Source: Psammoneis japonica
Taxonomy: Eukaryota
NCBI GenBank assembly: GCA_008632985.1
Contig: QPGO01000189.1
Span: 1 to 64,000 of the forward strand
Reading direction: 5' to 3'
DNA: 64,000 bases
The notes below the pieces were generated by a model. That model had not been told where the DNA came from and ran no database searches. It saw nothing but the letters and a program-made list of their open reading frames with translations. The translations under genes and the position numbers were made by a program. Every line of letters starts with the position of its first letter. The stretch's first letter is position 1. Of this stretch, positions 21,060-59,561 are shown piece after piece.

Positions 21060-21210
21060 AGCAGAAATTCTCACTGCTCTTCTCCCTGCTTCTTGGGTTG
21101 ACGGTGATGATGTGTGATGCACAAAACTGTCTGTTGTCATGCATGCATCCAGTCAACACAATCTCTGCCATTTCTTGAGATGAAAGAAATTGTGTTGGTG
21201 GCAACACCGG
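21060..21210 (-). pseudogene. Degenerate tandem copy of the 3' end of the HYR-repeat gene
   Basis: gggttgacggtgatgatgtgtgatgcacaaaactgtctg...gcatgcatccagtcaacacaatctctgc...gaaattgtgttggtggcaacac aligns to 21619-21730. Confidence 0.8.
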
Positions 21211-21461
21211 CCCAACAATGCATGGCTCCATCACAGTTTTGCAATGAAAAAAAAAGACCCCAACCCGAAACAGGTTTTGACTGGTCTACAGTCTGCTGAG
21301 GGGTCACGGCTTTTGCTGGAGAGGTCGTGGCCATTTTGTCTTGATTGCATGCCCAAAGTGTTGACAAAAGAGATTGTAAAAAGAAAACTAAAAATCTGTT
21401 CCTTTCAAAACAGGCATAGATTTTTGATGCAATCAAAACATCAACCAACCCCAACAACGGT

Positions 21462-30011: not shown

Positions 30012-31744
30012 CGCGGCTTACGGCACTCGGCTTGCGGCTGCAGAGAAGAGATGGAAAGAACAGCTTGAGAACACATGGCGAAGAGCCAACACATGGCACA
30101 AACGAGATGCTGTGAACCGCAGGGACATCATCATGGCGGCTGATGGCTGTCGGTGGGAGGGAACGCCGCGGACAGGAGGGTTACCATGGCTACGAATCGT
30201 GGTGAATGGGCCAATGGGCCGTGTGGACGAGTGCGAGAGTGAGTGCCTGCGCGCGATGTGCGCGCGGCGACGATGCGCTCGCAAGGGGTGCGACGTGCGA
30301 CCACACCATTCGATTTTAAAAATCAAATCGATCAAGTCGGACAATTCAATTATGTCGGAAAAACTGTGCCGTTTGAGCAGTGTGGTGTGAAGAGACATTT
30401 CTCTTTTCCTGTCCAAATGACCGCTGAAAAACAACGCAATTGACATGATGCGACCGACGATCATGACGACACAAACGACAGAATGAAGCAGCGGGCTTCC
30501 AAACCATTCAAAGGCAAAAGACATGATGCCAACTGATGACTTCTCTGGTGCAGGAAAGCAGGTGGGGAAGCTGTCCCATGGCATGGCGCCCGTGGAGGGG
30601 ATGACTGGATGAACACGCGTGTGGTGGTGGAGTTCATTTTTGTTGTTGACACTGCACAAGAATCGCTGCGAAAAGATGCAACGAGATGGCTGGATGCACA
30701 CACGTGTTACGAAAGCATAGAAAAGAGTTTGACTTGCCTTCGCGCTTCGCGGTGGCAGTGTGTCTGCCATTTGTTCTTCTTTCGCAACCTCGGGAATGTG
30801 GCGATTTCAAAATTGTTGTGAGTCGAGATGTCGGGATTTTTTCTGGATCTGTCTCTGCGGTGACTTTCGCATAAAACAAGCAGGGCCACACAGGCCTGCA
30901 GATGAGCATGCCAGATGCACCTGCCGTTCAGCAAGTTTTGCGTGAGCTCCCGGAACCAGGGTTCGCATTCGTCTTCTTCAATGGTCATCGTTGCAATCTT
31001 GCCATCCCTGGTTAAAATCTTATGTCAAAAGCAACCAAAACAAATACAATGACATTGCAAAATGTCTCCAGGCACATGTCTTGGAAGGTCTTCCTCACAA
31101 GAGACATCATGCTCCATCTTCTTCAAAGGCAATTATTGCAATCTTGCAATGCAACAACAATGCATGGGCAGGTCGAATTCTTTTGAATGGTCATTCATGC
31201 AATTGTGTCCCCAGCAATCAACTTTGAACATCTCGGAAGGTCATTCTCAATGGGAGGTCATCCCCGCCCCATCCATGAACAAGCCAAACATTTGTCACAG
31301 CTGCCTGTTTTGCTGCAGGCTTTTCATCTTGTTGCTTCCCAGTCGCAGTGCAAATTGACACATCTGCTGCAAAAATGGTGGAGCAGCCTCCTGCAGCCAA
31401 CCAACCCAAGCCGCAAACTTGGCTGCTGCCAACGCGTGCTGCCAGGCCCGCCTGACCTGACAGGATGAGCCCGGGCTCTCAGCTGTGCCAGTTTGTCAAA
31501 GAGATCCCCACGGGGCATGTGCAAAAGCTGGGCTCTTTTCATTTGGGCCAACCATGCACAAAAACAACCAGCACGCATTGGGGGGGGGAGGAGAGCAGGG
31601 AGGGGGCGGCGGCTCTCTCCAGCTGTCTCTCTGGGTGGGGGATCCAGCAGCGCTGGAGTGCAGCAACAACATGTTTGATGCATTTCAGATGTGGGTGAGA
31701 ATCTGTGCAACATCAGGCCAACGGCATTGTTGTGTGTGTGAGCC

Positions 31745-32337
31745 CTGCAGCAAGTTTGTTGGTGGTGATGAAAATGACATCGCCAACAGAAAAAAGGCAA
31801 TTTTGCAAGTGCACAAACTCGCCCATGAATGAAACACATTCTCATTTCTTGTTTGCTCCAGTGCACTTTTCAGACATTGAAAAATGCGCTCAGTGCGTTG
31901 TTGTTCCTGCAAGTGCATTGAACAAAAAGTCCTGGGTTTCACAAAGGAGGGAGTCATTGGAGCAATTCTGGGGAAGAGCACGTGCAAAAACGTCTGTGTG
32001 AAACATGCGGCGCATGACAAAAAATGATGGCTGTGTCACATGCCAGCACTGCAAGCACCCACCCAGGGTGGAGCACATTGTTTTTTGACTGTGTTGTGTG
32101 CCACACAAAACTGTGAAATTTTGGGTTTGCTTTGTGTCAGTTTGCAGCACAGCACCATCAGGCTGTCTGCTCACAAAACAACTTTCAAGAAGCAGCTCTC
32201 TTTTGCAAGGACATGCTCTTTGGCATCTGCAGAGAAGCTTGAGTGTGGAGAGGTGCAGCAGCACTGCAAAATTGCCTCTTTTTCTGTTGGCAATTGTTGA
32301 TTTGTTCATCATCACCTGGCTGACAATTTTGCTGCAG
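31745..32337. repeat. Degenerate inverted repeat (arms about 31745-31811 and 32262-32337), possible old MITE or foldback element
   Basis: The reverse complement of ctgcagcaag...ggtgatgaa...ccaacagaaaaaaggcaattttgcaagtg matches cactgcaaaattgcctctttttctgttgg...ttcatcatcacc...ttgctgcag. Confidence 0.65.
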
Positions 32338-34709
32338 AGAACTCCGGGGGGGGGGGGGGGGGCAACATCACAGGGCAGTTTGGTGATCAAGAGAAATCAC
32401 CTGTGCTTGATGCACATCATTTCTGCCATGCATGGGCATTTCCTTCAAAAATGAAGAAAACATCCAGCCTGTTTTTGTTCTCAGAAATGGCCAAATAAAA
32501 AATTCTGTTGACTCTCCACAACACAGGGCATGTGACACAATTTTGAAAAAAAGAGCACACACAGAAATGTGTGCATGCACCACACAGTGCATCATGGTCA
32601 ACAAACATTTTGTCACAGTCCAGTGCTGTGAGGTCTCACCTGGAGCTGCTGCAGTGTGTCGGGCAAGTTCTGCAGTGTCTGGCTTTTGCCATTGCAGAAA
32701 AAGCACACCAGCATGGGCACCACACTCGCCATTTGTGTCATGGTGCCCAGGCTCAGAACCACACCCTGCGAACTGCAAATGAGAAGTCAAAGTGGTGCAA
32801 GTGACTGTTTTTGAAACAACAGAAACATGTGCTTCCAATTTGAACAAATGGGGTCAGTGTGGAGCTGTGCAACAAAGCAAAGGAATGAGCAGTGCATGCA
32901 GCATGTGGCTGTTGTTTCCACTGTGGTGCTGTCAGCCTTTGCTGCCCCATGGCCATGTCCAAACTCTTGGCAGTTGCAGCACATGACTCCACCAGCAGCT
33001 TCTGTCATTTTTTGTCTGACTTGTGTGAGAGCCAACCTCTTGGGTGTCTTGACCTCAACCACAATTTCCATCATGCCCACAACCATGCTGATGGAAGGAG
33101 GGGAAGGCCCTGCTGGTGTTGCTGAGCCCAATCAACTCATTCAAAATGTCACTGCAGCAGCTGCAAAATCTGGCTGTGAAGGCATTCTTTCTAGCTGGTT
33201 TGAGTGACATCAAAAACTGAGGCACTTTCCAGAGAGTGTGAGAACTCTTTGATGGACCAAGGTCCAATGAAAAAGCACTGCATTTTTGCAGCAGGTCTTT
33301 GGCAAAAGTTTTGCTGCACAAAAATGCTGCCACCTCCTGTTTGTGGCAGCTCAGCAATTTGTTGTGAATGGGAACAATGCCAAGAACAATGCAACAACTG
33401 TGGAGACAGGAGCCACCCACACTGTTGAAGATGTCCATCACTGTGCAATGTCTCAAGCCAGCCATGGCCTTGATTGGCCAACACAGCAGCACACATGTCT
33501 GTCAAAAAACAAAGCCCTGAAATCTCTTTGGGAAAACAGCCTGTTGTGGTGTTTGGTCATCAGAGCTCTTTTTTCCTCCACTCCCCAATGCTGTTGTGAG
33601 ATTGTGGCTGCACTTGTAAGATTTGCTCCCTTCCAGAGCAAGTGGTGAGAATGAGACACCACCCATGTTTTCTCAGAGAGCCAAAAACTCCAGTTCATAA
33701 CATGGTGGATGTCTTGGCATTTCAACTCAGCAGCAAGCTCTCTCAACCAAAGATGGCAAATGGCCCATGCTTGGTGTCATTTTTCCCAGTCTTGCTCTGC
33801 TTTTTGCCCAGTTTGGGCCTGATTTCTCTGCTGTCTAGAACACAGATGACAGACAATGCCGTGTTGCTGACCACAAAAAAGAAACAATGAGGCCTCACTC
33901 TGAGTGTGCTGAGCATGCATGAAAAGCATTTGAGCAGAAAAAGAGGCCAGAGAAAGACTTGTTTGTGCTTGACAAGATGGCCAAATTGCTTGTGCTGCTC
34001 AACTTTGCTGCTCTGGAATGGACAAAAGGACCTTTTTCTTTGTCACCACATCTCGCCCCACAAGTCTTTGCCTTGTTCACAGAGCAGGTCAGAGGCAACT
34101 CTTGAAAGTTCTCTCTTTGATGTCTTCTGCAAGAGCTGGGGCTGATGGCCCTGGCAGCAGGGAGACAAACTGTGGCACTCAGATTTTGGAAGGTGCTTTT
34201 TTGAACTTCCATCTCTGCTGTGCTCCACAATTCCCCAACAATGTGAAACATGCCAGCACTGGTGCCGTGTGCTGGCTGCCGCTGTTCACAACCAACTCTT
34301 CCTCTTCCGCTGGGCTTGCAAGTGCAGGGGGGGAGCAGGGGGTGGCACATTTGTCTGGAGCACATGGATTGTGAGACACTGATGCCAGCTCTCAAGTGCT
34401 GCACAACATGTGGGGCCAATGCAGCATGCACCATGTGCGGCAGCACTGCAGCACTCACCAAAAACTGGGCCCCAGCCCTTTTTTGTCAGGGGGGATTTCC
34501 CAGTTTGTTGCAAAGTTCTCCCCCTGTGCTTGCAAGCCCACCTCTGCTCCTCCTCCAGCACTCAGGATCCAAGTGAACATGCATGGTTTGTGCAGCCTGG
34601 CTGCCTGTCAGGTTGAGTCATCAGCCAGCCATTCTTTGGGTTCTCTTTGTGACCATTGGAGTCATTTGCAGCACTCACTTTGTTGCAAGGATGACTGCTC
34701 TTTGCCCTT

Positions 34710-34985
34710 TTGCACACTCCTTCCATCCCAAGACAAGGTCAGGCTTGCTGAATCTGTTTGCTTTGCTTGCCATCAGAGCTGAAACTCATTTTGTGTTCTG
34801 GGCAAAGCTGCGCACTGCCCCCCATGGGACAGAAAGCTGTTTGCCTGATGCCACCTGATGGTGGCACTGAGAGGGAAGGATTGCAGGGTCATGTGACATG
34901 AAAAAATCATGAGAAAACATCAATTTGAGTGACCCCAGCATGCACACATTTGCACGTCCCATGTTTTGTTCTGCGCACAAAAGCA
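34710..34985 (+). repeat. Dispersed repeat, copy 2 (partner at about 14640-14940)
   Basis: Same ordered blocks as copy 1. Confidence 0.8.
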
Positions 34986-37900
34986 GGTGCAGCAGAAGAG
35001 CAAGCAAAGTTCTTTGTCAGGACTCATGTGCCTGGAAGCAAGTGGCTCTTCAAACCAAATGGTGTGGGGTCTTGTCACCCCACCATGTCACCAGCTGGTG
35101 GCACAACTCTGTTTGTGCTGCACATCTTCTGGCCAGGATGCACAGCCAGCAAGTGGGGTGCTTCATGCCAGCTCTGCTGCTCTTGCTCTGACACTGTGAA
35201 AATTTGCAAATGACCTCCTCTTTCACAACATTGCATCAGAGTTGCTCTTGTCTGGGATGTGTTGCTTGTGTGCTCATTGGTTGTTGACATTGGCAGCTTT
35301 TCAACATGACATGGACTTGTTTGACTGCCTGTGGCAATGGTTTGCTTGTTCAACAATGCAAGCTGCGCTGTTTTGTGGCACAAACGAAGGGCTGCTGAAG
35401 ATTGTGGAGGATGTGCTGGAGCACTGGAGAATCACATTTTGATGGCCAGTTCCTGCTCTGAACAGAATGAAATTGCACAGTTTGCCACACTCAGCAAAAT
35501 CACTTCTTTTTCAAACTCCTTTTGCAAAGTTGTCATTTTTTGACAAAAAAGGTGCTGGGTGCCTCAACACACAAAACATTTTGAAAATTTGCTTTTCTGG
35601 CTGGGCTTTCTCACAGGAGCTGGGAAAGAACCTGGGTGGCAAGTCTTGTGTGAAGCTGTGCCACAAATTGTGCAAAAAGCACTTGAGCTCATTCAGCCAG
35701 AAAAGCACTGGGTTCTGTGCTTTCACAAATGGTCTCTGCAAAAAGAGCACAAAAAAGGCTCTCTCAACTTCTTCTTTCACAAAAATGACTCCCTGTGAGA
35801 GCCACAGCAAGAACAGGCTCACAATGAAGAACATGTTCCTTTGGCTCAAATGATGCATGCTGCAGCTTTTGTTGCACACATCAGGGTGATTTTGCTTGAA
35901 GAAGATCCTCGGCACAATTGTGTGCAAAACAATTTCCAGGCAGTTGCAACATTTTCAACTGTGCATGTCACTCCAGGTTTTTTGGCTGTGCAACTGTGGG
36001 TTTCTGGAACAAAAATGTGAAAAAGTTTTGGCAGGCTGTCATTGTTGTTCTTGGGCAAAGGTGTTGTTTGCCTTGCAAGTGTGAGCTGATCAAAAACAGT
36101 GATCTTCTGCCCACCCACCCATCGCAGAGCCCACTTTGGCTTTTTTGTCAGTTTTTGTTTTGTTGGAAGTGGAAACTGTGAAAGACAGCTTGTTCTTTCA
36201 GAAGTGACTTTTCACATGCAAACTCTTGCAAAACACCCATGTCCATCTTGACTTTGGGAGCTCAAAGTCTTGTGTTGTCTGACAACCATCACACACTGGG
36301 CACATGTGAAGTTCTTCACATTGACTTTTCTGTGATTGAGGAGGCTGTGCAAGTCACCACTGTGGCACTCTGACTCCATTTTTTGATGGCTTTTTCAATT
36401 TTGGCCCCATCACAAAAGCTCAAACACTCAATGTCATGGAAGAAGAATGGCACAAGGTTTGTGAAAAGAAATGATGGCAATGTGCACAAACACAGCAGAT
36501 GCCTGGTTGGCTTCCAGTGGCATCACTTTTGTCCTTGTTGGTGACTTAAAAGATGCATTGTGGAAAGCCAATTTAGACCAGCACTGGACCAACATCCACA
36601 GAATGTAAAAACTGACCTCATTTGATGCAGGCCAATTGTTTGGATTGTGAAAAAAATTCACACTCCACTTTGTTCCATCAATCTTTGTTTCCTGCCCAGG
36701 GACTTGATCATTCACCCACATGGTCTGATGTGCCTGGCAACACCATGACCACCGCGGCTTTCATCTGGCAACAGCACACCCAGCACCACCCCACCTGCAC
36801 AATTTTGTGCATCATCCATTGTGCAGCACATGAGAGCACAGCACTGGCAGCCCAGCTTGGACCAGGGGGGTGCTCTGGCCAATCTGCACCTTGTTTAAAG
36901 TTCTTCAGTTTGGCAGAGCCAGAGAGTCACACAAGGATGAGCAGCAAGAAGACCAGGGGGCGCATTTCTTTGCCGCCAGCAAGCAGTGTAAAAAGTGTTG
37001 CCAAGCAAGCAAAAAGCCAGTCTGTGCTGGCAGTGTGCATGCTTCATGCTGCATGCTGGTGCAGAGCTGTGTGTGCACAGGCAGGAGCAAGGGCTCACAA
37101 GTCTGTCAGGGCACACACAAGCTCCAGCACAAATCTGGACTGTGCCAGGCTTCTGATGCAATGAACTTGACATTGTGAGAGGACACCCTGAAATGCTCAA
37201 GAGTTTGATTTTGTGGAATTTCTCAAAAGTTCTGTGGAGGATGGACAACAGATGGCCATTTTTCTGGAATTTTTGCTTTTGGTGCACACATGTGTTCAAA
37301 AGTGAAAACACAGAATTTGTGCATTGCAGCCATGGAACTTGCACTGTCAAGATTGCCCAACACTTGCCAATGTGTGCTGTGGTGCCCAGTGTGCATGGCC
37401 CCATGAGGGAGACATGCCAAGGAAACTCAGCAATTGGCCGTTGACCTCTCCTGTGGAGTTCTGTGCACCAATCTTGTCATGCCAATTTTTTGGGTGCAAT
37501 GTCACTCATTTGTTTTCTGCTGCTGCTGTGTGCACCCATGGCATGAGTGCCACAGTCAGTTGAGCACATGATTGACTCAAGTGCGAGCACTCAAGTGTGA
37601 GCACTGACAGCACTGATGTTGTGGACATGTGTCAAAAACACAGGAGAAGGACTTTGAGCTTGGAAATTTGGCACATGGCAGGATTTGTGCACATGATCCC
37701 AAAGAAAGATTTGCCCACAGGCTGAACTCACCTGGTGTGTGTCCTCACACTGATGCCATTGAATGCAGCGCTGCACAAGTTGCATGACCAGGCCACACCC
37801 ATGGCCACCTTGAGCACCACAGAGGAGAGCTGCCCCTGCCTGCCTCAGCTGCAACCAGAGCCTGCACATGAGTGATCTCTGAAGTTTTGCACTTCAAAAC

Positions 37901-39039
37901 ATGCTGTGAGTTGGGCCAAGTGCCCCTGTGCAGTGCAAGACTTGAGCAAAGAAAAGGCCAAATGCAAGCACCAGCACAATCTCTGGCATGCACTGATTGG
38001 CTGACATGGCTGGCCTTCATCACCGTCAACTCAACATCAGTTGCTTGTTGTCCAAAAACACAAGTCAACAACATGCCTGCTTTCTTCCAATTTAAAATGA
38101 GTCAAGCCACCCTGGGGATTCTAAAAAAAGTGCTGCTCACTTTGTCATTTTTCCTTGATTGTGGTCTTGAGTGGAAGTGCACCCTTTTTTTGTGCGGTGT
38201 GCTGCTTTTCAAAGCATGTGTGGCAGAGTGGCTCATGCTGGCAGATTCAGCAAGAAGCAGCATCCTCATCCCCTTGTCCCAGTGCAAGTTGTGCTGGCTG
38301 TCACCATGGTGCCAAGAGGAAAATGGCAGGAGCTGCTTCCAAACAATGAACCAACAAGCGCGGCAGGCAGTGTGATGAAGAAATGTCTTGGAGCATGGAC
38401 ATTTGTGAAATGAGAGTCTCATGAGCACACCTGCCCCCACCCCCTGCAAGTGCTGGCTTGTTGGCGTGCACCACACATTTCTCACACAACAACACCCCCC
38501 TGGCGGAGTTGATTGTGAATGTTTTCTTGGGTGTGGGCTCATTTTGTGAAGAAGCAGACCAAGCTTTGTGGGGAACAGATCCATGCCATGGAGAGTTGGC
38601 AGTGGAAATTTGTGGATGGTTTGGGCTCAATTGCCTTTGACTTTGGTGTGGCAAAGCTGCATTTTTTGTTTGCTGTGGTGCACCCACACTGGCAGCACCC
38701 TCACAAACAAACAACTGGTTGGGCTGCTGCCAAAGAAGAAGTTCCGCCAATTAAAAACACAGAGTGACAGACTGCAGATGAGGGCAAGGGAGACCAGCTG
38801 TTGTCTTTGACTTTTCCCCAAGAATCAACAATTCACTCACACCGTGGAGATGAAAGCCAAGATGGAGTGCAACATTCTCAAAAGGGCCAAGATGCAAGAA
38901 GCACCACAACGCATGGACAGGAGGATGGACCTGCATGAGAGATGGTGCAAACAAGCTCTGTGATGTCCTAAAAGGCCTTTTCCACACTGAGACAGGCAAT
39001 GCATGGGTGGGCTTGGAGGCTGCCATTTGATCTGTTGTC

Positions 39040-40900
39040 TGTTGGCCGCTCATTTTTTGCATCTTGAATCTTCTTTTGATCTCACAATGAAAGAACAACA
39101 TGGTGAATGACAAGGAATCATCAGCACAATGACAAAGAGATGACCAAAGGTCATGCCTGCAATGACTCTGTCAGGCTTTCTTGGCTTGGGGTAAAATGAT
39201 GCTCCTTCAGCATGTTTTGACCAGCAAGGAGCACAAGTTGAGAATTGCTGTGATTGTCGACAACATGGCTGAACTGAGTGTAGATGCACAAACAATCAAC
39301 TGGACTCCCTTTGCTGCAACAAGTGACAATGAGCAGCACTCTTCTGTGACTGATGAGCCCGCTGTGGTTGGAACCAAGCAAGAGGCCATTGCACTGGAGA
39401 ATGGTTGCATCTGCGTGCTTCACAGTGATTTGATTTGAGAGATCCATCGCACCCACCTGGATGGCTGGTGTTGCTTCAGGATGGAATTGGTGCAACCAAT
39501 GGCAAGGCTGATGGTGTGGTGTTGTTTCCTTTGTTTGCCATGCCAACACACCCTTCCACCCCCAGAGAGGCTTGACAACTGCTTCATCTCCAAGATTTTG
39601 CACTTTGCGGGAGAGTGGAATGGCAAGAGGATCCAGGACACCACTGAAAAGGTCAAACAAAAGCATGTGGAGGATTGGCATGGATCCATGTTGTGGCCCA
39701 AAGGCGCCATGTGGATTGCTGGCTGTGATGAACACGAGCACAATTGGTCACATGCGGGCTGCATTGTTGCCATCAATCCCATCTCTCCTTGGCATTGCAC
39801 CATCCATGAGGAGAAGTGGGGTTGCAACACCAAACAAGAAAGAGAGTCAATTCCGAAAAGAATTGAGCAAGACAGTGAGCATGGAGATCAACAACAGGAG
39901 ATTGTCTTCCATGGGATCAACATCAAGGAAGATGAAATTTGTGGCACATTGGATGCATGCCTGCTGACAGACAAGGCAGTGGCAGGGCATGTCATGGATT
40001 TGCCGCTTGGAGCATGCCATGACATGCTCCCTCAGTTTCCATTTTGTTGTTGCAATGTTGGCACAGTCTTGGCCACTGTCTGCCTCAACAAAACCATCAC
40101 TTCATGATCCCCACCAAGTTCAAGCTCACTCTTCCCAATTTAAGGCTGTGACGCCAATTGTTGACAAACAAGATCTGCCAATTGCAGTTGTTCATGTGCG
40201 GCTCAACAAGTGCTCCGGAGCAAGTCATCATGGAGTGCTGCCAGCGATGCTCCATCCCAACAATGTCTGTGAGCAGCATTCCCTGTGTCTGCCACTTCTT
40301 CACTCAGAAGAGAAGAATTTTCTGAACCATCCAAATTTCGTCTTTGCATCAATGCACTTCTGCCAAAGTGTGGACAGAAGCAAAAGCACAACAACCACAA
40401 ATCCGACACCATGGTGAATGATTCTGGCACTCAAGTCCATGTCATGGGCAATGTCAAACCTGTCCCATGCAATGCTGATGACAATGACAACAATGCTGAT
40501 GATGACCACAACAATGATTGCCCTGATGGAGAATGTGACATGATCTTGGCAGCCGCACAACATTTTTCTTTCAGGTGCTTTTGTGGGAAGAGCCCTTTCA
40601 AAACTTTGCCAACCAGAGCCAAACAAGTGCACAAACAAGCAACTCAAAGAGTGGCATGTGTGCTTCCATGCCAAAAGGCTTTTACAATGCCCTGCATTGT
40701 CCAGCCCAACCTTCTCCCAGAAGCAGTTGCCCAGCTGGTTCCGATCAACCTCATGAATGAACAAAAGCACCCTGATCCCTGAACGGCAGTGCAAATGTCT
40801 CAAGTGTCATTGTGGGCACCATGAAACCACTCCCACAACATCTCCCGCTCCAAGCTTTTGCTGCATCACAAGGAAACAATCAACAAATTGTTTGATGTCA
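39040..40900 (+). pseudogene. Second, heavily mutated CobW-nucleoplasmin-like copy with an internal deletion of about 500 bp and shared flanks
   Basis: Aligns to about 16065-18370 (LLQHVLTSKEHKLRIAVIV, ALENGCIC, ISKILHFAGEWNG, HVMGNV.PVPCNADD). At about 39452 it jumps from the equivalent of 16495 to about 16995. It has stops and frameshifts. Confidence 0.93.
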
Positions 40901-42884
40901 CATTCGCCAACAAACCTGCAGAAGTGAATGCCATCTTCAATGGTGCCTCTGTGCCTTTGGGGGGTTCCTCTGTGCACTCAGCATGTGCATCTGCCGCGCA
41001 TGCAAGAAATTGTGTGCAAGTTCTTTCTGCACCACTTTGGTGGTGGGAGTCCTGCATTCTGCATCAGCCAGAGTGATGCCAGCTCTTTTTGCACTTCTTC
41101 CTGCCAGCTCCAAGTGCTTTTTTCAAGGCCACAATGTCCCCATGATTCAACAAGCAGTTGGCGCTGATCTTGTTGAGCTGCTTGTTCACCCCCAGGAATG
41201 CTTGGCTCTGTTTGCTCATGTCAGCTGCTTTGCAATTTTTTGGCAAGCTTGGTCTTTGTTGCAGCCAGCTGCTTTGGACAAGCTGAAGCTTCCTCTGAAG
41301 AAGGCTGGCATTTTTGCTCTTCCAGAGGGGTTTCAAAACCCCTCACATTCAGCACCCTCCTTTTTGTGTTGCTCACAGACATCTGGAGCTTTCAACTTTG
41401 GAGAGCCTCTTGGGGTCCTCATTGCCAGGGCAACATTGTTGTTGCTGGGTTGGTTTTCTTCTTGCTCCTGCTGGAAGGCCCTTTGTCAAAATTGAGCTTG
41501 TTCAATTTGTTGCCAGTCAACACTTTTTCCACTTCCTCTGCTTGGCACATCATTTGCCAGCATGACGGGCAGCCAAGAGTCTGGCTGTTGAGGACTTGCC
41601 ATTGCCATCACTGGGCTTCCATCATTCATTCTCTCAGCTTTTTCTTTGTGCTGCACAGAAGCTTTGCATGGCCTGCTGACAATTGCTGCTGTCATGGCGG
41701 GTGCTGCAGGAAATCAGGTGCCATGTTCTCTCAGCTTGGGTTGGTCTCTTTTGTCTGAGATTGGTGGTTCAAACATCCAAGGCACCAGAAAGTCAGTGGA
41801 TTGAGATCAGACATTTTGTGTCTGCCCATCTTTCCACTCCCCTTCCCCCATCATGTGTGTGTGCTGCAGAAAGAACAAACAGGCATCACAGACACCAGTT
41901 TCCCAGCATTTTGCCGGCAAAACAATCATGCACAAATTGTGTGCAATTTTAAAAAAGAGATGAGGTTGGATCAAAAAATGCAACAGAGACACACAAAAAT
42001 GCAACACAACATGACAAGCGACAATGGCAACCATGTGGGGATAAAAAAACAACATTCACACTGATTTCGGGCATGCTGCAGTGACAACATGAACATGACA
42101 AGTGCAGCTGATGCAATGTTTGGCTCACTGGTGTCCATCTGATGGCTCCAATCGATCATTCGAGATGATGTCATTGTCGTCAACATCCCGCATTGTTGCT
42201 GCACATGGTTCATGTAGAAAATTGCAAAAAAAGCCGTTGACAATGATGCTCTGAAATCAACCACAAACTGCATCCAGAGTCAACATGGGCACATGTCTGT
42301 GCTTGTCACGCGCCATGAGACATGTCCAACGCGTTTTGTCTCACAAAAGTTGGTCAACAGCGTCGCCGGCGGCACGCCATTGTCAGCATCGAATGCCGCA
42401 CAAAAAGCACGGGGACGACAGAAATTGACTTCTTCTGTCGCACTTGTCTGTCCATCACCCATTTGTCTCGTGTTCTGCGCGCAGTGTGTGCTGTTTTTTG
42501 TTTGAGAAATTGCCCCTCATTTTCTCCCAATTTTTGGATCTGAGCTCACCAGATTTGCTGACTTTCAAGCACCAGCTGCTGGCAGTGGTGTCTCTCATTG
42601 CTTGGAGAAGGATGCAGACAACAACAACAAAAAATCTTCAAGAGGAGGCAACTTTTTTGCCAGAAAATGACAGCAGCAGACTGCGGGTGGCTCTCCTCTC
42701 TTTTCAACTCACTCCTTCCTTCCTCATTTGAGCCACACTGCCCTGCATGTGATGCTGTGATGGGCATCAGAGTGACACACGCATGACAGCCAGGCATTTG
42801 CAGTGACGCAGACAGCTCACAGCCTGAACTGACCAGGCAAAACGGAAACATTCTACTAACTCCCATCAGATTTTACACAGACTA

Positions 42885-42900
42885 TAACCCTAACCCTAAC
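42885..42900 (+). repeat. Short interstitial telomere-type repeat TAACCCTAACCCTAAC
   Basis: About 2.7 copies of CCCTAA at the right edge of the TpA-depleted domain. Confidence 0.6.
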
Positions 42901-43176
42901 ACGTATGTAGTCTAAACATCAATGTATCCGCGCCCATTTCCATCTCGTAGAATCTACGTCTGTTTCAGTACATACACTGCCACTAGTAGTAAGTAGCCAC
43001 CAGGTGCGCTGCAGGATGGCCTGCGCGCGCGACATACAATCGCACTGATGCGGATCGCCAGCCCCAGCGTCCCCCCCGTCAAAAGCCAAAAATGAGGCTC
43101 TCTGCAAACCGAAGATTATCAAAGCACAAAAAATTGATTGACACAACTAACGCGATATCTTATTATTCTCTACTTG

Positions 43177-44257
43177 ATGGAGGGCATTGTAGCTTCTTGG
43201 ATAAGGTGTTATTCTTGGTTTATGGGACCTAAAAAAGAGAATCGATTGCTGCTTCGGGACGCTGAGCAGCTCGACAAGGATGATGGCAATGCTGACTTGT
43301 TGTTGATGATGGGCGGCTCAGTCGCGACGGATGCGTCGAGTACCTCTAGCCATTTCGACGACGATGCGTCGTTCTGTGATCTCGAAATGCCTGGAGAAAC
43401 TCAAAACGGATCATCGTCCTTATCGAAAAGCGATGACGCAAAAATGAGCCATAAAGAGCGAGAAAACCTCCGAATTCCTTAGGCGAGCCCTGTTCTCCAC
43501 AAGAAGCAAATAGAAAACCAGCCGCTACAACACCAACTAGTAATAAAATTCGGAAAAACAAATTGGATAAGGACACTCTAAAAGTCATCATGGACTCGCT
43601 AAAACACCACAAGCCTCCGTCGTTGGACGTAGATCAATTCGAAAAGTTTCTGTCTCACACCAATCGTCAAGTGCAAGAAAAGATCCGTGTCCTTGATCCA
43701 GACAAGGAAGAATTCAAGCAAGAAATCGACTATGTAAGGGCGGAAGCCTTTTCAAACTAGTCGTTCGCGGAGCCTCCAAGGACAATGATCTAGACAAGCC
43801 AACGCTCACGTGGTTGCGTCGTGCGGTGGGAATTTACAAGCAACAAAACCTCTACGATGGACTCGAGCTGCCACGAACGCCGCTACAAGAAAACAAGAGC
43901 ACCGCGACACGAGTCAGATCAAAGCGTATCCAGAAGCTTAAAGAAAAAGAGGAACGAGACAATGCAGGCTTGGAGGCCCTGGTGGGAGCGGCGAAGGATT
44001 TGCAACCAGAAATTGCAAGGCACAAGGCACAAAAGTTAAAAGAAGCAATATTGGCGAAACAACGAGAAAAGGAAAAGTTAGAGGCGCAAGAAAGCGTCCA
44101 TTGCGTCGACAAAAGAATGCAAACTCGAGAAAGAAACCAAGAATTGAGCGTCGTCCAGTTCCGCTCTCGGATCGACAATTTGAATTGTGGTTGCAACACC
44201 TTGTCGACCAAGATACTCTTAAATAGCATGGGCCAGTGGATGAAACGAATGTTCTAG
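43177..44257 (+). CDS. Hypothetical protein (charged, coiled-coil-like), broken by probable frameshift errors
   Basis: Consecutive plus-strand ORFs 43138..43482, 43563..43760 and 43814..44257 with coding-like composition; no recognised motif. Confidence 0.45.
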
Positions 44258-44395
44258 GTGTATGGGTGTGGGGTAAGACTGAGAAAGGGGCACGATACAG
44301 AACTCTAAGTTCCCATTCAGTCAGTGATAATAAGATAGTTTTCGCCGTTAAATCCGATGGTCTTCAAGCTGCCAGAGTCGTTTCAGTTGTCCGCA

Positions 44396-46018
44396 TCATC
44401 GCAAGTTGCATGTTTCACTATCTGTTTCAATACAGGTTGCCATTGCTGCCTCCAATCCTCCCTCCAACGAATCATAAACGGCCACCAAATTACAACGAGG
44501 CGTCGCTTCTTCTGGATCCTGCTCTTGATAATTCCCCGACGAAACTGCGGCACCGTATACCACCAACACGGGAGCCGGTCCTTCGAACTCATTGCCGACA
44601 AAGCAATTGTTTTCCAAAATCGCTTCACCAGCGTCGACAATTATCAAGGCACCGTAGCTCTGAAGTAATGTACACAGAAGGAAAAGTCAGAAGGTCTTTG
44701 GAGAAATGACTACAGTACCATCTTCCATATAAGGTCTTTACTTACAAAGTCTCCGACGACACCATACGAATTCCCTTCAAATCGACAACCTTTGAATTTG
44801 GTGACTGTCTGGCCTTGAGAGACAACCATGCCTGGTAGAGTGCCATCGCTTGGAAGCTCGATTGCCGAGTTCCCCTACGACAAAGAGCAGGACGTGAAAT
44901 GCTTGTTGTTCAGACTTCTTCCTCTAGAACGACAGAAAGGCTGATAGTACGTTGAGTTTATGCTACTTACCTCAAAGACACAATTCTCATAGGTCAAGTC
45001 AAGGATATCGTCAATCGTGGGCTCCCGAGGGGCTTGATCCAATTCTGTCAACTTTCTTCCGTCATTCTTGATAGAGGCCGCATCCAGCGTCGACAAGTCA
45101 ATATTCTCTTTGTCCATTTCCAAACCTGAATCATCAGGGAACCACGCACCAAATGCTGGCCCGAAATTTGCCATATTCTAACAGACACTTAGTGAGAAGG
45201 GGCACCAAAACACACGCCAAAGACTGTTGGCTGTTCCTGACTCACCTTGAAGATACAGTCCGAGATTACTATTTCTCCCGGCAAAGTAATGAATGAGCCG
45301 TTTTCGGTAAGTCCGTCAAAGGTAAATCCCCTGATCTCGACATTTGCTAAATACTCAAAGTCATAATACAACGTGTTGGCCCAATGCCCAATATACCATT
45401 GGTGACCAAGCAACTGTTTGAGCTTGACCCATCCTCGCCGCAAAGAATTTCCATGTTGGGCCTCAATCCCAAAAAGAAATGATCGTCAGTTTCAATAACG
45501 CTATTTGGACAAATCACATAGGATCTCTTCTGAGACACATCCGCGTCAATTTCAAGTATGTTGATCGAATGAAAGTCTGCATAGCATGCAGCAGTCTCCA
45601 ACGGAGTTGACCTGGGACTTAGATCTGCGACCATCGACGACAATTCTCCATCTACACCAGGTGGCATTGGCGAAGGAGGACTTGTCGGGTATCTTTTCTT
45701 CTGATCAAGGCTGTGCGGATGCTTAACAAACCACAGCTTGTTACGAGGCACCTTCTTAGCGCGCCATGATTTCAGTTTTTTCTTCCCGCCCTTTTTTGCT
45801 TTCCAATTGTTTCCGCTTGTCTTCGCGCCATAATTATGCGGCATGAAATGATGGTAATATTTTTGTCGCGGCAGCATCGAAGATTCCTTTTTAGCCGGAT
45901 TCACGTATCTCCAGCGACCTTTTAGTCTCTTATAACGGGTGTACTTTTTGAATCCGTAAGCGCAAACTTGATGAGGGATCAGCAGGATCACAATGGCAGC
46001 GATAAAAGCAACAAACAT
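44396..46018 (-). CDS. Secreted K/Y-rich protein with a conserved C-terminal beta-helix-like domain, paralogue 1 (multi-exon)
   Basis: Signal MFVAFIAAIVILLIPHQVCA-YG, then a K-rich segment, CYADFHSINILE.DAD....RSYVICP, NMEILCGEDGSSSNSCLVTNG, GFTFDGL, ISDCIFK|GTGAG and NCFVGNEF. Confidence 0.75.
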
Positions 46019-46310
46019 GGTGGAGAAGGAAGTAATGTTCTTAACGTATTGTTTGGTGTGTGAGAGGAGTGGTTAGGGTAGCCGCCATCTAAACTGCAGC
46101 CGCACCTCGTTCTTTTTGTTGACCGACCAGCTGCGAGGCAAATTTTGTGACCGTGTGATGCGTTGAGTTAAATTCAATGTTCACAAATGGTAAAAATAAT
46201 ACCGGTAGTCTACAGGAAATCAACGACAAGCCTGTTTTGAATGCAGTGCGGGCGACAGAGCCGGCCAACGCATGTACGTACTTACGTACGGCACCGTATG
46301 CGACAACTTA

Positions 46311-47352
46311 GACCCGTCGCAGTCGTGACGAAGGGGTGTAATTCGGGGTGCGCGCGTTTTTACACCCCTCAAAAAAAATTACAGCCAACAATTACCCCTC
46401 CTGATGCATGTAATTTTTGCCTGTAATTTTTAGTAAGCGCCTGTAATTTTTCGTACGAAAACAGACTCATCATCGTCCATGACGGCAAAAAACATCAGAA
46501 TGTCGAACAACAATGGCAACCAACAATCTACGACGAACTTCAACCAGTAAGAGATGTAAGAACTCGTTGATGGCGAACTGTTATGATATATGTATGAAAG
46601 AAATAATGGCGAAAAACAATGAGATTGCCATCAACGGACAACAAAATGAGGGCAAGTTCATGCCATTTCAGAAGAAAAACACGTCATATGGTCACTGAAA
46701 CCTTGGCTATGGATACAATAGTAAAATATGATGTTAATCACGTTATTTTAAATGGACTAGACTTGTCAGAACAATGATTTCATATGCGTAAGGTCGCAGC
46801 GGCGCCGCCGAACGCCATGGTGTTTTGATGCTGTCAAAAGAATTCATCGTGGGACCCCACAAATACGGAGGGACCCGCAACCCGGAAATGTGTAGAGTTC
46901 TACGTGAATGTATGGGGACTGTTCACGTAGGTTTTGTACCAGAGCTATCTCGCGAACTAGGCGTTTTTTCGGATTTTTGTCGTAGAAACTGTACCAGTTT
47001 TGCGTATGTAGGCTACATGTTTCAGTACCACATACAAAAATTCGCGTAGAGCTCTACAGGAGGGTCCCTCCGTATTTTTTGTGGGGTCTCACGATGAGAA
47101 TGTTCAGCTTCGCGTACACATAAGTTGATTAAAATTAGAGATATAGAGTTATTCCTGTTTTAATATCAACAATTTTTGAGGAATATATATTCGATGTATA
47201 TATCATTTCTCGCAGAATTACAGACATCCAATTTCACACTCTCGCAGTCGTGAGAAAATCGAGTGTAATTTAGGTGTAAATTCGCCGATGCGCGTTTTAC
47301 ACCCCAAATTACACCCCGAATTACACCCCAATTTCCACGACTGCGACGGGTC
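46311..47352. mobile_element. Non-autonomous DNA transposon (MITE-like) with a perfect 17-bp TIR flanked by TA
   Basis: TA|GACCCGTCGCAGTCGTG ... CACGACTGCGACGGGTC|TA. The inverted match continues with GGGGTGTAATTCGGGGTG, and there are subterminal TTACACCCC repeats. No transposase ORF. Confidence 0.88.
46844..47097. mobile_element. Nested small MITE (about 250 bp) with roughly 33-bp TIRs and an apparent GAAT target duplication
   Basis: GAAT|TCATCGTGGGACCCCACAAATACGGAGGGACCC ... GGGTCCCTCCGTATTTTTTGTGGGGTCTCACGATGA|GAAT. Confidence 0.82.
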
Positions 47353-47399: not shown

Positions 47400-47781
47400 T
47401 CGTCCGCTGTTAACAGCCAGTTTCAGTCCACTGATGTCACCACAAATTCCAACAGCAGAAGTGGCGGACAGCCATGGACAAGTTGTGAGTGGCAGGACTG
47501 TCAGCTGCAAGAAGCAAGTCGTTGTTGCTTTGTCATCATCAGGGAAAGAGACCAGCAGCCCCACAGCTTTTTTCTCCTTCTTCACCCGACTTTCTCAAGA
47601 AGCACCTTGCTGGCAACTTTTCACGCACGAACACTTGCCCAACAAGATGCTGAGGTTGTTGTTAACGGGTTGGCCTTTTGTGATGGAGTGCAGATGGGCA
47701 TGCTGCAATCCAAACTGGACCCCAGGCAGCAGCAGCAGACAGCAGCACACACACACACACACACAACACACACCCCCACAC

Positions 47782-47819
<38 letters not shown>

Positions 47820-48580
47820 ACCCCGCTGCAGCAGCAGCCCAGCCCACACTCTTTCTGTGATGATGCATTTGAGAGATCTCCATCATTTGCTGTTTTTTTC
47901 TGGCAGCTTCAAATGAGCTTTTGTGTGTGTGTGTGGTGAGTTGACAACAATGAGCAAAGGATGCCCAACATGGCAGATGCAGTGCCAGCACAGACACCGC
48001 CAAAGCCACAGCCAGCAAAACAATGAAAACAAAGGTTTGCTTTGTCTTTGGCTCAAGCTGTTTTTCCACAAATGAGGAGCCCTCCAAGCACTTTGGATGG
48101 ACACATGCCAGCGCAAAACATGCATGAGTCAATGGCTCGCCTGCTGGAGCTGTTGCACAACTGCTTGTGAGTGCTGGTGATGCCACCGCTGAGAAAGCCC
48201 AGCCATGCTGCACATTGTCACAGAGGAAACAGAGAGACAATGAGTGGGTTGTGTGTGATGAGCCTGGGGTTGTTGGCTGTGCAGGTGAAGAGAGAGAGAG
48301 AGAGACAAAAGCATCGCTGCACAAGGCTCAGTTGCAAAGCACATGGCAACATTTCCGTGTGCAGTGACTGTTGGCCCAGCCACAAAGTTGACATCAAGGG
48401 GCACAATGCAAACAAGCAGCACAGCAAACAAAACAAGTGGCAATGTCAATTCATTCATAACCCCACCACCTACGCACCCACACAGCACACAAGCAAAGCT
48501 TGTCACAGTCACGCCAGGAATGATGATTCTGACTCGCTCTTCTTGCACAAATGCATGCATGCCAACAATCAAGAAGGTCG
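47400..48580. other. Small TpA/CpG-depleted degenerate island with a (CA)n run, a long poly-C tract and (GA)n
   Basis: Very few TA; poly-C at about 47783-47824, CA repeats at about 47745-47782, GA repeats at about 48290-48305. Confidence 0.75.
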
Positions 48581-48736
48581 ACTAGAGCTGCAGTGCTAAC
48601 CGAGGAACACTTAAGAGTGTGCTGTTACATCTAAAAGCATCCCAAGCCCAATAACTTGCAGCAGTTATAATCCAATTATGCATGCATTTTATGAATCCCC
48701 TGTTGTCTGATGCCCCTTTAACCTGTTTTCTTTCCA

Positions 48737-50904
48737 TTATCCCAAAAGGCATGTGTTGCTGTCTGCTTGAAAGCATTCAACAAAATCCATGTTGAGTGGG
48801 CCATCAAAAATCGCAAGCAACTCACAACGCGCTGGAGTTTCTCGTTCGGTGATGAAAGTTCCATCCACTCCACTGATATAATCTTCGAAAGGAAGTAATA
48901 CAATGTTTGGGGCAGCCGCCTCGAAGATGTTGTCGAAGAAGCAGCTCTCTATTAGATTGATCTCGGCACCCTGGTATGCAAGAGACAGAAGACCAACAGT
49001 GCGCTGCAAACGCAAACGAGAAGAAGACCGAAAGATCAGATTGTGACAAGAAAAACGATGTCAAGTTTAAGTTTGCAATTTTTGAGACGACTTACACCTT
49101 CTGGGCCGTGTCTGAGATATGTATTGTCCTCAAAAAGGCAACGATCGAAAATGGTAAATACGTCCCCATTCATGGTTAGCATACCAGGAAGATCAAATGG
49201 AGATGTTGCATTGCCACTTCCCGTGTTATTCTGTCACAGCCAATATTTCAGAGAGTGCATTTCATTCATTAGGCATGTTTGGATATACTATCATGTAATG
49301 CAAGTGAGAACTGATCGTAAAGCTTACCAGAAAGACGCAATCCTCAAACAATACGTCAAGTACGTCATCGGCTGTCGGTTCACGCAGTACTCTACTACGA
49401 CCGGGACCCTCCAACTTTCTGTTGTCGAAACTACGCAAAAAACTTTCTGGCGACGGTATAAGGGACGGGTCGAGTCCGCCGTACTCGTCGGCACCAAAGA
49501 ACCAGTTAAAGACGACAACATTGTAGCTGAAAAAGTCCTGTAACGAGACAAGAGGAACAGAATTTTCACGAAGGATTAGTGAACTTATGGCCGGATGAGA
49601 GATATACTGCAGCTTCAGTCTTACCTGAAAAACACAGTCCGATATTGTCATGTTCCCTGGTAAGAAATCAATGAGTATGGCATTCTGGTCGAGATCCACA
49701 AACGTGAACCCAGAGACAAATACATTCTCCAAAACGTCTGACTGGTCCATGTCAGAAGCTCGCATGCCATATAATCCATTGGTAACTAAGCAATTGTTTG
49801 AGCTAGCCCCAGTTACTCCGCATCGGACTTCCATGTTCGGTTTTATGATCAAGAAATCGTTGTCTCCTGTTTCAATAATACCATTGGGACAATCTCATAT
49901 GATCTCACTTGTGTAATATCTTCATTTTCATCAAGTTCATTGATTTGAGCGAAACTAGGGACGCATGTGGGAGTCTCTGTTGGAGCTGCTGTAGGGGATA
50001 TGGTGGGTACCACGGAAGGACTACTTGTAGGTGCTGCTGTTGGCATATTGGAAGGTTCCGCAGTAGGTGTCAAAGTGGGCACTGTTGATGGGGGTTCCGA
50101 CCCCACAGGAACTTCAGTTGGAGCTGACGTTGGGATCAATGAAGGCATCGTCGACGGCTGTTGAGACCCGACCGGAGTCATCGATGGGGGCTGCGACCCA
50201 ATAGGATCCTCTGTTGGCGTTGTAGTGGGTGTCACTGTGGGTGTCGTCGATGGAGGCTGCGAGTCCATATCATCAGTCGTTGGTGTTTGAGTTGGTTCCA
50301 ACGTAGGAGTCACGGTTGGTGTTACGTTGGGTGTCGTAGTAGGCAGCGGGGGTGGGGGGTCTATGGTCTCTGTTGGGCTCTGTGTTGACTCGGGTGTCGG
50401 AGCGGGAGTTGGCATGGACGTCGGCTCCCCCGGAGTCGGTGTGGGACCCGGCGACGGCATGGGTGTGGGCTCCTCAGGTGTTGGCGAAGGTGCTCTAGTC
50501 GGAAATCTCGATTTTTTTGTGGGTACATGAGGAAAGAATTTTTTCAACGGGACATAGTGGGGCTTCGTGATTTTTTTAACTTTCTTTTTGCCCTTCTTCT
50601 TTCCCTTCATCTTTTTGCCCGCCTTCTTTCCTCCGTAGGAATGCTTCCCCCCAACGCCCTTTATGCCATACCCATACTTCGTTGTCGGGAGCTTTGGATA
50701 CTTCGGTTTGAAATATTTCCAAGGGACAACTGGCTTCTTTTTTGGGGTGAAGAAATGGAAACCTGGCACATGTTTCCTCACGTACCGGTATCCGCCACCG
50801 CCACCCTTTTTCCCTCGCGTTCCCGCTCCCTTTTTGCCGCCGTATGCGATGACTTCGTTGTTGAGAAAAACCAACACTAGAACAAGAGTTACTCTAAACT
50901 TCAT
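48737..50904 (-). CDS. Secreted K/G/Y-rich, Pro/Thr-rich protein with a conserved C-terminal domain, paralogue 2 (multi-exon)
   Basis: Signal MKFRVTLVLVLVFLNNEVIA-YGGKKG, then KKGKKK tracts, a PTPxPT linker, CVPSFAQINELDE...RSYEI, PNMEVRCG..GASSNNCLVTNG, GFTF, ISDCVFQ|GTAAG and SCFFDNIF...CFQADSNTC. Confidence 0.8.
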
Positions 50905-51553
50905 GGTGGAATCAACAAATAAGGATGCAGAGTCTTTTTGATCGTTACGGAAAGGGTATTCTGCCTTTTCTGTGAGTGGCGTGTGCGTTGTGTCCCGTTT
51001 TTTTCGGCCAAAAATGTGAGCTATATGCGTTGAGTTGATATTTGTATTAATTCATTAAAATAACTACAAAAAAGTTGCCTAATACCTGTATAAAGAATAA
51101 TGGTCACGCTTGCATTTAGAAGTAGATACTAAAATATATTATTGGCAGCAGAGTACATTTTAAAAATCCTGCATTTCCGGCCGTCGGAGTCTGCGCACCC
51201 TTCTATTATACTAGACTATTTTCAAATTTGGGCTTGGCTTCTTTCAGCATTTTCATCGTTTTCAATTGAGTATGAGCAGTTTGTTGCTTTCTGTTTATCC
51301 TCCACCCTCCATCATCTTCGTGACATTGAAATTATTAGACCACTGCATTGGTTATTGCATACAATGAAAAGTCACAAATAATAATGTTTCAACTAGAATC
51401 AATGAATAATCACTTAGGTCTACGTCAAACGTCTTTTGTAAAGAATCCCCAGAGGTGCGCCATGATGACAGTGCTTCTGTTCCAAATGATGTGACTGCTC
51501 CATCTTAACAATAACTGCATTCAGGAGTCCCCATTACTGACATTAGCTACCTA

Positions 51554-53537: not shown

Positions 53538-54039
53538 GGATGAGAGAGAATGGTGCCGTTGACAGCTAGCAATGTGTTGTGAGCGTTATGGATGATGTTG
53601 CCTTGTTTCATTTTGTTTTTCCTGCCAAAATTGTGAGGAAGGAGCGTTGAGGTGTATTCACTATATACATACGAATATGTCCATTCCTAATGATGTATTC
53701 GAATTCTAATACTTTTATAGAAGTTGATATCCGTCGAAAGAACTTTCCGTCTGTCATTCCGCCCCTCCACGTGTGGTACGCGATGGATGATGGATGCACG
53801 ATGAGGTGCTGATGAGTGCTGACGCGATTTCAAAAACGTCAACAAAAAATCACAAAGCGCCGCACTTCGCCGTCTCATTTACGATGTCGTGTATGTGTCT
53901 TACACCGGCATTCAGTTGATTGATAGGCAGCAACAGCACCAACAAGAAAGCAGCATACTGACGTTCAGATAAATTTACTTTAAATTTCCGGCGGAACCGT
54001 GCATGCAATGTGTCAACACGACGCGTCTGAACCAAGTGC

Positions 54040-58275: not shown

Positions 58276-58385
58276 AGAGAGCTACGAATGCTCACTATTT
58301 AAAGGTATAGATAGAATTAGACATTGCTGAACTGCGCGTCTTAATGCGAATTCGTTTGAGTGCTGTACTGCAACCAACAAGCCAA

Positions 58386-59300: not shown

Positions 59301-59527
59301 GCCTCAGCTCTGTTTCAATAGAGTAGCAGGTACGCATAGAATGAACCATTGTATCAAGCGTTGTGTGCATCGTTCACTCGAAAACTTGAGATTGCAATGG
59401 GGGTGATAGAACTACTTGTAGGCCCTCTACTAGAGGGCCCTAGCTAGAGAGTAACCTTAGGTGTTAGGTGATGTCGCGACGGTTCAGCAGGGTGAGTTTT
59501 TATTGTAGAATTTTTTTCAATTTTGAA

Positions 59528-59561
59528 TGACGTGGGAGTTCAGGACGTCATATTTACGTCA
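59528..59561. promoter_or_regulatory. Cluster of three TGACGT/ACGTCA motifs in a divergent promoter
   Basis: TGACGT at 59528-59533, ACGTCA at 59545-59550 and ACGTCA at 59556-59561, between head-to-head genes starting at 59300 (-) and 59702 (+). Confidence 0.45.

Follow-up and report, generated by a model that had tools for sequence, protein, structure and literature searches.

Nuclear hypermutation aimed at A:T pairs is not known to us from before 2026, when a preprint described it in a single rhizarian alga, Bigelowiella natans. Of the 302 mutations recorded in mutation-accumulation lines of that species, 231 were located in two integrated viral regions, and these were all A:T>G:C changes at TpA giving TpG or CpA, with a rate of about 6e-7 per site and generation, about 1000-fold over background (Mettrop et al., bioRxiv 10.64898/2026.01.13.699255). 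The same preprint describes 124 clusters in the B. natans genome that are depleted in TpA and enriched in CpA and TpG, and proposes an ADAT2-like adenine deaminase as the agent. Diatoms are known to methylate transposons via DNMT5 and also carry a RID-like DNMT4 (PMC9998398), and our literature search found no report of TpA loss, or of mutation resembling fungal repeat-induced point mutation (RIP), from a diatom. Here we analyse positions 1 to 64,000 of contig QPGO01000189.1 from the Psammoneis japonica assembly GCA_008632985.1, a stretch of 64,000 nucleotides hereafter called the window, which is nuclear DNA of a diatom-like stramenopile with short spliceosomal introns and which holds an intact CobW gene (copy 1) and a second, decayed copy of it (copy 2). 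The comparison of the two copies and of the DNA around them points, with a high degree of confidence, to a regional transition hypermutation aimed at intact TpA and CpG dinucleotides in silent DNA.

An earlier note on this DNA had quoted six pairs of short strings from the two copies, all of which occur where it placed them, and had claimed that nearly every TA and CG of copy 1 reads TG or CA in copy 2. The claim held when positions 16060-18150 were aligned with 39036-40615 and blocks of at least 10 columns were counted. The 1527 aligned columns contained 213 mismatches (86.1% identity), divided into 167 transitions and 46 transversions, and the expected products were found at 17 of the 19 aligned TA of copy 1 (nine TG and eight CA, with two other outcomes and none kept) and at 80 of the 98 aligned CG (47 CA and 33 TG, with 12 kept and six other outcomes). 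The change at CpG was strand-symmetric, with one change per site and none to TA. Transitions affected 18 of 39 bases in TA (46%) versus 43 of 712 other A/T bases (6%; odds ratio 13.3, Fisher p 3.3e-11), that is, about 8-fold more often per base, and 81 of 197 bases in CG (41%) versus 25 of 579 other C/G bases (4%; odds ratio 15.5, p 2.4e-33). Transversions, on the other hand, stood at about 3% in each context class (2.7-5.3%), so the excess is limited to context-specific transitions. The A of AA did not change above background (of 106 AA, seven became AG and six GA), and the most stable dinucleotides between the copies were CA and TG.

The earlier note had also observed that each site it looked at had changed at only one of its two bases, and had suggested the dinucleotide itself as the target. 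Among the 96 changed pyrimidine-purine (YR) sites of the full alignment, none had changed at both bases, with neither CG to TA nor TA to CG, while independent hits on the two bases would give about 16 cases of CG>TA, and the probability of seeing none, calculated from these counts, is about 3e-8. The absence of double changes thus supports the intact dinucleotide as the target, and since a site once hit is no longer a target, TG and CA represent an absorbing end state.

The direction of these changes was determined with 59 orthologous CobW proteins rather than with a close DNA outgroup. For the 119 nonsynonymous codon differences, the residue commoner among the orthologues was present in copy 1 in 81 cases and in copy 2 in 23, with 15 ties, and in the 42 strongly conserved columns the conserved residue stood in copy 1 in 39 and in copy 2 in three. 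Copy 1 therefore holds the ancestral residues, and the changes to TG and CA arose in copy 2. Neither of the two results that the earlier note had named as refuting its claim was thus obtained. Conserved residues lost in copy 2 include Ser28, Thr31 and Thr32 of the P-loop (TCG/ACG to TGG/ATG), Tyr315 and Tyr474 (both TAC>TGC) and Leu549 (CTA>CCA). In addition, copy 2 carries a large deletion (Table 1) with its junction near 39451/39452, several frameshifting indels, fragmented open reading frames (ORFs) only, and at codon 116 a stop that arose by CGA>TGA; it is a pseudogene.

Both copies are assigned by sequence similarity to the CobW/COG0523 family of G3E GTPases. The copy 1 product matches the Pfam domains cobW (PF02492, 3.2e-48) and CobW_C (PF07683, 3.3e-17) and retains the family-invariant columns of the motifs GxxGxGKT, CxCC, ESTG and NKxD, with C105, C107 and C108 in invariant columns. 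Its closest named relatives belong to the pennate diatoms Seminavis, Pseudo-nitzschia, Nitzschia, Cylindrotheca, Amphora and Fistulifera (44-53% identity), and a near-identical protein was not found on record.

The use of the copy pair as an internal control, as the earlier note had presented it, proved sound for the change in copy 2, but copy 1 is not pristine and had already lost TA at the expense of tyrosine codons. Its CG content is normal and its TA content partly depleted: at codon boundaries there are 13 T|A versus 71 C|A, compared to 28:43 and 34:46 in genes of normal regions, while synonymous CG is undepleted (58 C|G and 44 NCG). In nine columns with an orthologue-conserved tyrosine, copy 1 has histidine in six, cysteine in one and tyrosine in two; for example, a tyrosine present in 58 of 59 orthologues is replaced by histidine (CAC), and one present in 57 of 59 by cysteine (TGC). 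The commonest replacement of tyrosine in the CobW family is phenylalanine, and a control gene lying outside the depleted DNA (1676-3871, minus strand) retained tyrosine in 11 of 15 such columns, the others being three phenylalanines and one serine. Histidine (CAY) and cysteine (TGY) are the exact products of TA>CA and TA>TG at TAY codons (Y, pyrimidine), so the tyrosine losses fit TA loss. The TA erosion thus extends, judging from these codons, into the live gene and hits conserved tyrosines there. Residues 362, 400 and 429 are not among the nonsynonymous differences between the copies, and being alike in both they mark tyrosine losses older than the duplication. Moreover, because copy 1 was already TA-depleted relative to the orthologues, its use as a reference under-reports the TA loss in copy 2.

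Copy 2 is part of a larger domain in which TA and CG are almost absent. The observed/expected ratios (O/E) in 31001-42850 were 0.03 for TA, 0.16 for CG, 1.85 for CA and 1.86 for TG (sum 3.90; G+C 48.3%), compared to 0.59, 1.00, 1.18 and 1.17 in the normal DNA of 48601-64000 (sum 3.94; G+C 46.7%), and other dinucleotides in the domain were near normal. The losses of TA (0.56) and CG (0.84) are roughly equal to the gain of CA and TG (1.36), and this matching, with the sum of YR steps conserved, is the arithmetic fingerprint of transitions on a wholesale scale at TA and CG. Runs free of TA extend up to 2711 bp, compared to a mean expected gap of 15 bp. The equality of TG and CA along the domains gives no pointer to a strand effect of transcription or replication. 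Besides the stretches adjoining copy 1 (Table 1), TA/CG-free DNA was found at 4250-6000 and 47500-48500. The regions 7033-12779, 42855-47250 and 48600-64000 are normal, intergenic parts included, the latter two with TA O/E of about 0.5-0.9 and CG O/E of about 1. Domains with a TA O/E of 0.00-0.1 thus border on 20 kb with 0.5-0.9, and since the intergenic DNA that adjoins the domains is normal, the effect is a regional one whose sharp borders are defined to tens of bases. Across the window, TA O/E was below 0.15 in 42 of 127 intervals of 1 kb, and in 32 of those 42 CG O/E was also below 0.3. As a crude background, metagenome contigs with related loci had TA O/E below 0.15 in 15 of 1677 such intervals, all 15 with CG O/E of at least 1.0; no close diatom relative was present among the 80 related metagenome loci (30-40% identity).

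The loss of TA could be separated from the loss of CG. In the window, CG loss is always nested in TA loss, and TA loss without CG loss occurs in three places, namely the TA-free run that overlaps a copper-transporting ATPase fragment, the spliced genes between copy 1 and the domain (Table 1), and copy 1 itself. The ATPase fragment reads GVGVND in place of GDGVND, and two of its three aligned tyrosines read cysteine. Together with CobW, it shows that the recognisable targets in depleted DNA are remnants of host genes. The retention of synonymous CG in copy 1 indicates that something other than selection stops the CG loss where the live gene begins and ends; the pattern of CG loss fits methylation limited to silent DNA, the TA loss being broader.

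Table 1. Positions of the depleted regions, the CobW copies and associated features in the window.
Feature	Positions	Strand	Remarks
TA-free run, 1052 bp	5981-7033	-	Still about 41 CG per kb; overlaps the Cu-ATPase fragment
Cu-transporting P-type ATPase, C-terminal fragment with a frameshift	6295-7231	-	PDB matches HMA4 (5.8e-12) and ATP7B (1.7e-22)
TA/CG-free stretch immediately upstream of copy 1	12779-16000		
Upstream paralogous segment	14506-15481	+	Versus 34577-35471; both TA/CG-free, differing mainly by transitions
CobW copy 1	16136-18160	+	Intronless intact ORF, 674 aa plus stop; G3E/COG0523 GTPase with C-terminal extension
Copy 1 segment missing from copy 2	16497-16985	+	About 490 bp, from alignment blocks; holds ESTG and NKxD; present in orthologues
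Copy 1 3' flank	18196-18385	+	Homologous to 40719-40905 (blastn 74% identity); both TA/CG-poor
TA/CG-free stretch immediately downstream of copy 1	18250-21287		
Spliced genes with HYR, ephrin-receptor-like and PT-repeat domains	21300-31000	-	TA O/E 0.13-0.6, CG O/E 0.7-1.0
TA/CG-free domain holding copy 2	31000-42854		Sharp right border near 42854; 250-bp profile
CobW copy 2	39037-40613	+	Pseudogene, 86% DNA identity to copy 1; flank homology as far as 40905

Homology between the two loci continues beyond the coding region. Because transitions leave purine/pyrimidine identity unchanged, we used alignment in a two-letter purine/pyrimidine (RY) alphabet, which scored 93 for the 3' flank (18196-18402 versus 40719-40923; shuffles at most 30). 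The upstream paralogous segment had a local RY score of 255 (10 shuffles, at most 32), and blastn aligned 14598-14946 with 34659-35004 at 70% identity; its overall identity was 65% in nucleotides and 91% in purine/pyrimidine, the latter inflated by optimisation of the alignment in RY space. As this segment is paralogous, the duplication was larger than the gene, and the duplicated segment carrying CobW probably measured at least 6 kb. In ordinary-alphabet alignments of the flanks and of the upstream pair (near 14.6 and 34.7 kb), 15 of 88 YR pairs had TG opposite CA, versus eight of 224 for the coding sequence (p 1.3e-4), and about 20% would be expected if ancestral TA and CG had decayed separately after the duplication. 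This frequency indicates that the non-coding paralogues decayed in situ, in parallel and independently at both loci.

Differences between the window and two sets of contigs, X1 and X2, were used to consider the timing of the process; 40 of 358 differences were listed. Among those listed, 13 of the 19 in 24-30 kb have CA or TG in the window versus TA in the contigs, and in 31-38 kb seven have TG or CA in the window versus CG, with three in the reverse sense. For X2 overall, C/G in the window versus T/A in the contig was seen 144 times and the reverse 39 times. The variation at YR sites looks recent, and the process is possibly ongoing. The X2 contigs are transcript-like, and those over 24955-30193 (minus strand) are spliced relative to the window and 2-11% different from it, mostly by C/G in the window versus T/A, pointing to a diverged expressed allele or paralogue richer in TA. 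They skip introns at 25363-25435, 26304-26379, 28328-28398 and 28668-28760, and the introns so defined are 71-93 nt long and, read on the plus strand, have CT..AC ends. X2 contigs give no cover over 30671-42009, which we did not use as evidence on expression.

Some additional features of the depleted DNA and its neighbourhood were recorded. A CG-retaining, TA-free islet with 17 CG in 250 bp lies inside the domain at 42250-42500 and could be an unmethylated, promoter-like island. About 35 bp past the right border, a single telomere-like match, CCCTAACCCTAA, occurs at 42888-42899 (plus strand); it was set aside as too weak, since seven of 100 shuffles also gave one match and it may be due to chance. 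Tandem repeats in 30-44 kb were limited to three trivial arrays. The word depth of the X1 contigs rises from about 60 to 300-1090 at 32005-32671 and 41343-42676, with many loose ends and joints; these two intervals are dispersed repeats whose copies share exact words, and they may have multiplied once TA/CG-free. Since TA-free DNA contains neither TAA nor TAG, long spurious ORFs abound in the domains, and stop-to-stop ORFs of 75-200 aa were observed in all six frames of 31000-42850, without family match. None of 138 ORFs of at least 75 aa from TA/CG-free stretches matched Pfam above threshold, and one gave a sub-threshold CBM_14 match; in this set Pfam thus gives no support to the derivation of the depleted domains from transposons or viruses, although heavy mutation may hide a foreign origin. 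Outside the domains, internal repeats with offsets in multiples of 132 bp and 75-86% identity occur at 22080-22862, inside the PT-repeat ORF 21465-23063 (minus strand). The control gene at 1676-3871, with normal TA and CG, encodes an ADP-forming acetyl-CoA synthetase-like protein of 732 aa that shares 70-73% identity, near full length, with proteins of Desulfobacterales/Thermodesulfobacteriota, the closer matches being three unnamed ones (68-87%), and this gene may be of bacterial origin in a eukaryote.

Other explanations for the loss of TA and CG must be considered. Modified bases at CpG and TpA might have been systematically misread in the assembly, and the window does depart from the Logan X1 contigs by about 0.3-0.8%, including numerous indels of a single base and several differences in which the window has TG or CA and X1 has CG or TA. 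Nevertheless, X1 contigs of word depth of about 57-65 cover 32346-35206, 35402-37528, 38361-39249 and 40264-41816, each with 2-12 letters that differ, and another spans the domain border (42442-43750), so that assembler or polisher error is ruled out by their reproduction of the TA/CG-free sequence. More than 8 kb of such sequence is reproduced at an exact-word depth of about 60, which argues for accurate reads, and restoration of the differing sites shifts O/E only marginally. Moreover, copy 2 has separate marks of decay (the deletion, the frameshifts and 3% transversions), and copy 1 has histidine and cysteine at tyrosine columns within an open frame of 674 codons, all of which makes an artefact of this kind barely credible. 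Selection against UpA and CpG, on the ground that RNA or DNA containing them is destroyed or harmful, would be in line with the joint suppression of both in many cytoplasmic RNAs and viruses (PMC3829696). However, the DNA affected here is a frameshifted pseudogene plus 12 kb without recognisable gene, both strands are affected equally, an O/E of 0.03 is far beyond known suppression, conserved residues including the P-loop were destroyed and a stop was created, and neighbouring intergenic DNA is unaffected. We consider such selection highly improbable.

Polymerase eta prefers WA motifs (W, A or T), and if the deamination or removal of 5-methylcytosine (5mC) recruited patch repair by a polymerase of this type, with errors at WA, TA loss could be a by-product of CpG methylation. 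The constant nesting of CG loss in TA loss would agree with such repair, but TA was lost from DNA that kept most of its CG (5981-7033, copy 1 and 21-31 kb), the A of AA, itself a WA site, changes no more than background, and the B. natans process, as reported, lacks a CpG component, which leaves error-prone repair improbable. A RIP-like defence triggered by the duplication, in which both copies would be mutated at TpA and CpG and copy 1 would survive by selection against damaged alleles, could account for the presence of both members of the duplicated segment in TA/CG-free DNA and for their independent decay, and diatom DNMT4 groups with fungal RID (PMC9998398). On the other hand, fungal RIP runs the opposite way, turning CpA into TpA and thereby enriching TA; synonymous CG was kept in copy 1, where selection alone would not protect it; for the greater part of the 12-kb domain the window contains no partner; and the word depth of the domain, although a poor measure of copy number, equals that of normal DNA except at the two short repeats. 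Such a defence is therefore unlikely as an account of this locus.

The reading that we prefer, regional hypermutation directed at TpA and CpG in silent DNA, also has points against it. The tyrosine test relied on nine columns, with CobW orthologues of about 50% identity, which are more remote than the control gene's orthologues at about 72%. In 24-30 kb the allele differences are unpolarised, and it may instead be the other allele that gained TA; X1 possibly derives from the same sample as the assembly and so is not a fully independent isolate. Furthermore, the process in B. natans targets viral and transposon DNA, whereas the only recognisable target in the domain is the duplicate of a host gene, and because CpG loss is foreign to the B. 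natans signature, two unrelated processes may simply coincide. Taken together, the window shows the direction of the change, its context specificity, the single hit per site, the regional limits, the separability of TA and CG loss, the independent decay of the copies and the erosion of live genes.

Under this preferred reading, a segment bearing CobW would have been duplicated, with one copy remaining a gene and the other lying in a silent-looking domain of 12 kb, where TpA would have turned into TpG or CpA and CpG into the same products. Two components can be distinguished. The TpA loss (A:T>G:C) has the wider reach, roughly 4-42 kb, and erodes live genes too, and the CpG loss (C:G>T:A) is confined to non-genic stretches, ending at the edges of copy 1, as methylation-dependent deamination of 5mC would give, perhaps following DNMT5-type CpG methylation. 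The chemistry at TpA would be enzymatic, either a deamination of adenine by an ADAT/TadA-like enzyme, as suggested for B. natans, or T modified so as to pair with G; TpA being self-complementary, A>G is not separable by sequence from T>C on the other strand. The trigger may have been silencing, rather than duplication as such, with duplication or foreign origin as other candidates. We are far less confident of any one enzyme than of the regional, dinucleotide-targeted character of the mutational process. Among candidate bases, 5-hydroxymethyluracil was rejected as the cause, since a TpA preference is not given in the consulted part of a review (PMC6313786), and nothing ties it to diatoms. We propose only tentatively, as a conjecture with more against it than for it, that diatoms have an enzymatic RIP-like defence of a new type that marks silent or duplicated DNA and deaminates there A in TpA and C or 5mC in CpG, the two self-complementary YR steps, producing TA/CG-free domains and spilling into live genes, where tyrosine becomes histidine or cysteine. 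If so, this locus and Bigelowiella together would point to an old and widespread adenine-editing DNA defence in the lineages of stramenopiles, alveolates and rhizarians.

These observations have consequences for the analysis of other genomes. The process can be detected from sequence alone, by O/E near 0 for TA and CG and near 2 for CA and TG with the YR sum conserved, and in such DNA alignment in the RY alphabet finds homology that escapes ordinary searches. The erosion of functional genes means that protein evolution, and not junk DNA alone, is shaped by it. In addition, the spurious long ORFs of TA-free domains are a trap for gene callers, and annotation should take this into account.

In comparison with known systems, the locus recalls fungal RIP in that dinucleotide-context transitions riddle a duplicated gene copy and its flanks and that the compositional domains have sharp borders, and differs from it in that TA is destroyed, CpA and TpG are produced, and A:T is mutated as well as C:G. 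The C>T change at CpA with TpA enrichment typical of RIP is contradicted by the ratios of the domain (TA 0.03, CA and TG 1.85), and as to the action of RIP on both copies, the flanks of both decayed independently here, but CG was retained in the coding sequence of copy 1. Methylation-driven CpG decay is similar in the change of CpG to TpG or CpA, with one hit per site, in silent flanks and not in the active gene body, but explains only the CG half of the pattern. CpG O/E in vertebrates is about 0.2, and the values of 0.02-0.16 seen here represent a stronger depletion. The deaminase defences, APOBEC and AID acting on C and ADAR, ADAT and TadA acting on A, are alike in chemistry, since A converted to inosine and read as G, and C or 5mC converted to U or T, would fit deamination; a T 5' of the edited A matches the preference of ADAT/TadA and ADAR (10.64898/2026.01.13.699255).

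The closest likeness is to B. natans, with which the window shares A:T>G:C transitions confined to TpA and giving TpG or CpA, discrete regions of tens of kb with TpA depletion and CpA/TpG enrichment that include silent DNA, and lineage or allele differences suggesting an ongoing process. It differs in its host, a diatom-like stramenopile and not a rhizarian, and in the degree of depletion, TA O/E being 0.03 here versus a rho of 0.45 in the region of nucleocytoplasmic large DNA virus origin in B. natans. Moreover, compared to the process as reported there, CpG is purged too, a host gene duplicate is the identifiable target and nearby live genes are eroded, tyrosine codons included; the rate in B. 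natans was measured in mutation-accumulation lines, while here the process is read from sequence. The TA half of the pattern thus matches the B. natans signature and its regionality, and the diatom-like lineage, the near-saturation and the coupled CpG loss would be new. The CobW pair provides an independent, polarised, base-by-base record of the TpA signature, which suggests that it is not a curiosity of one species.

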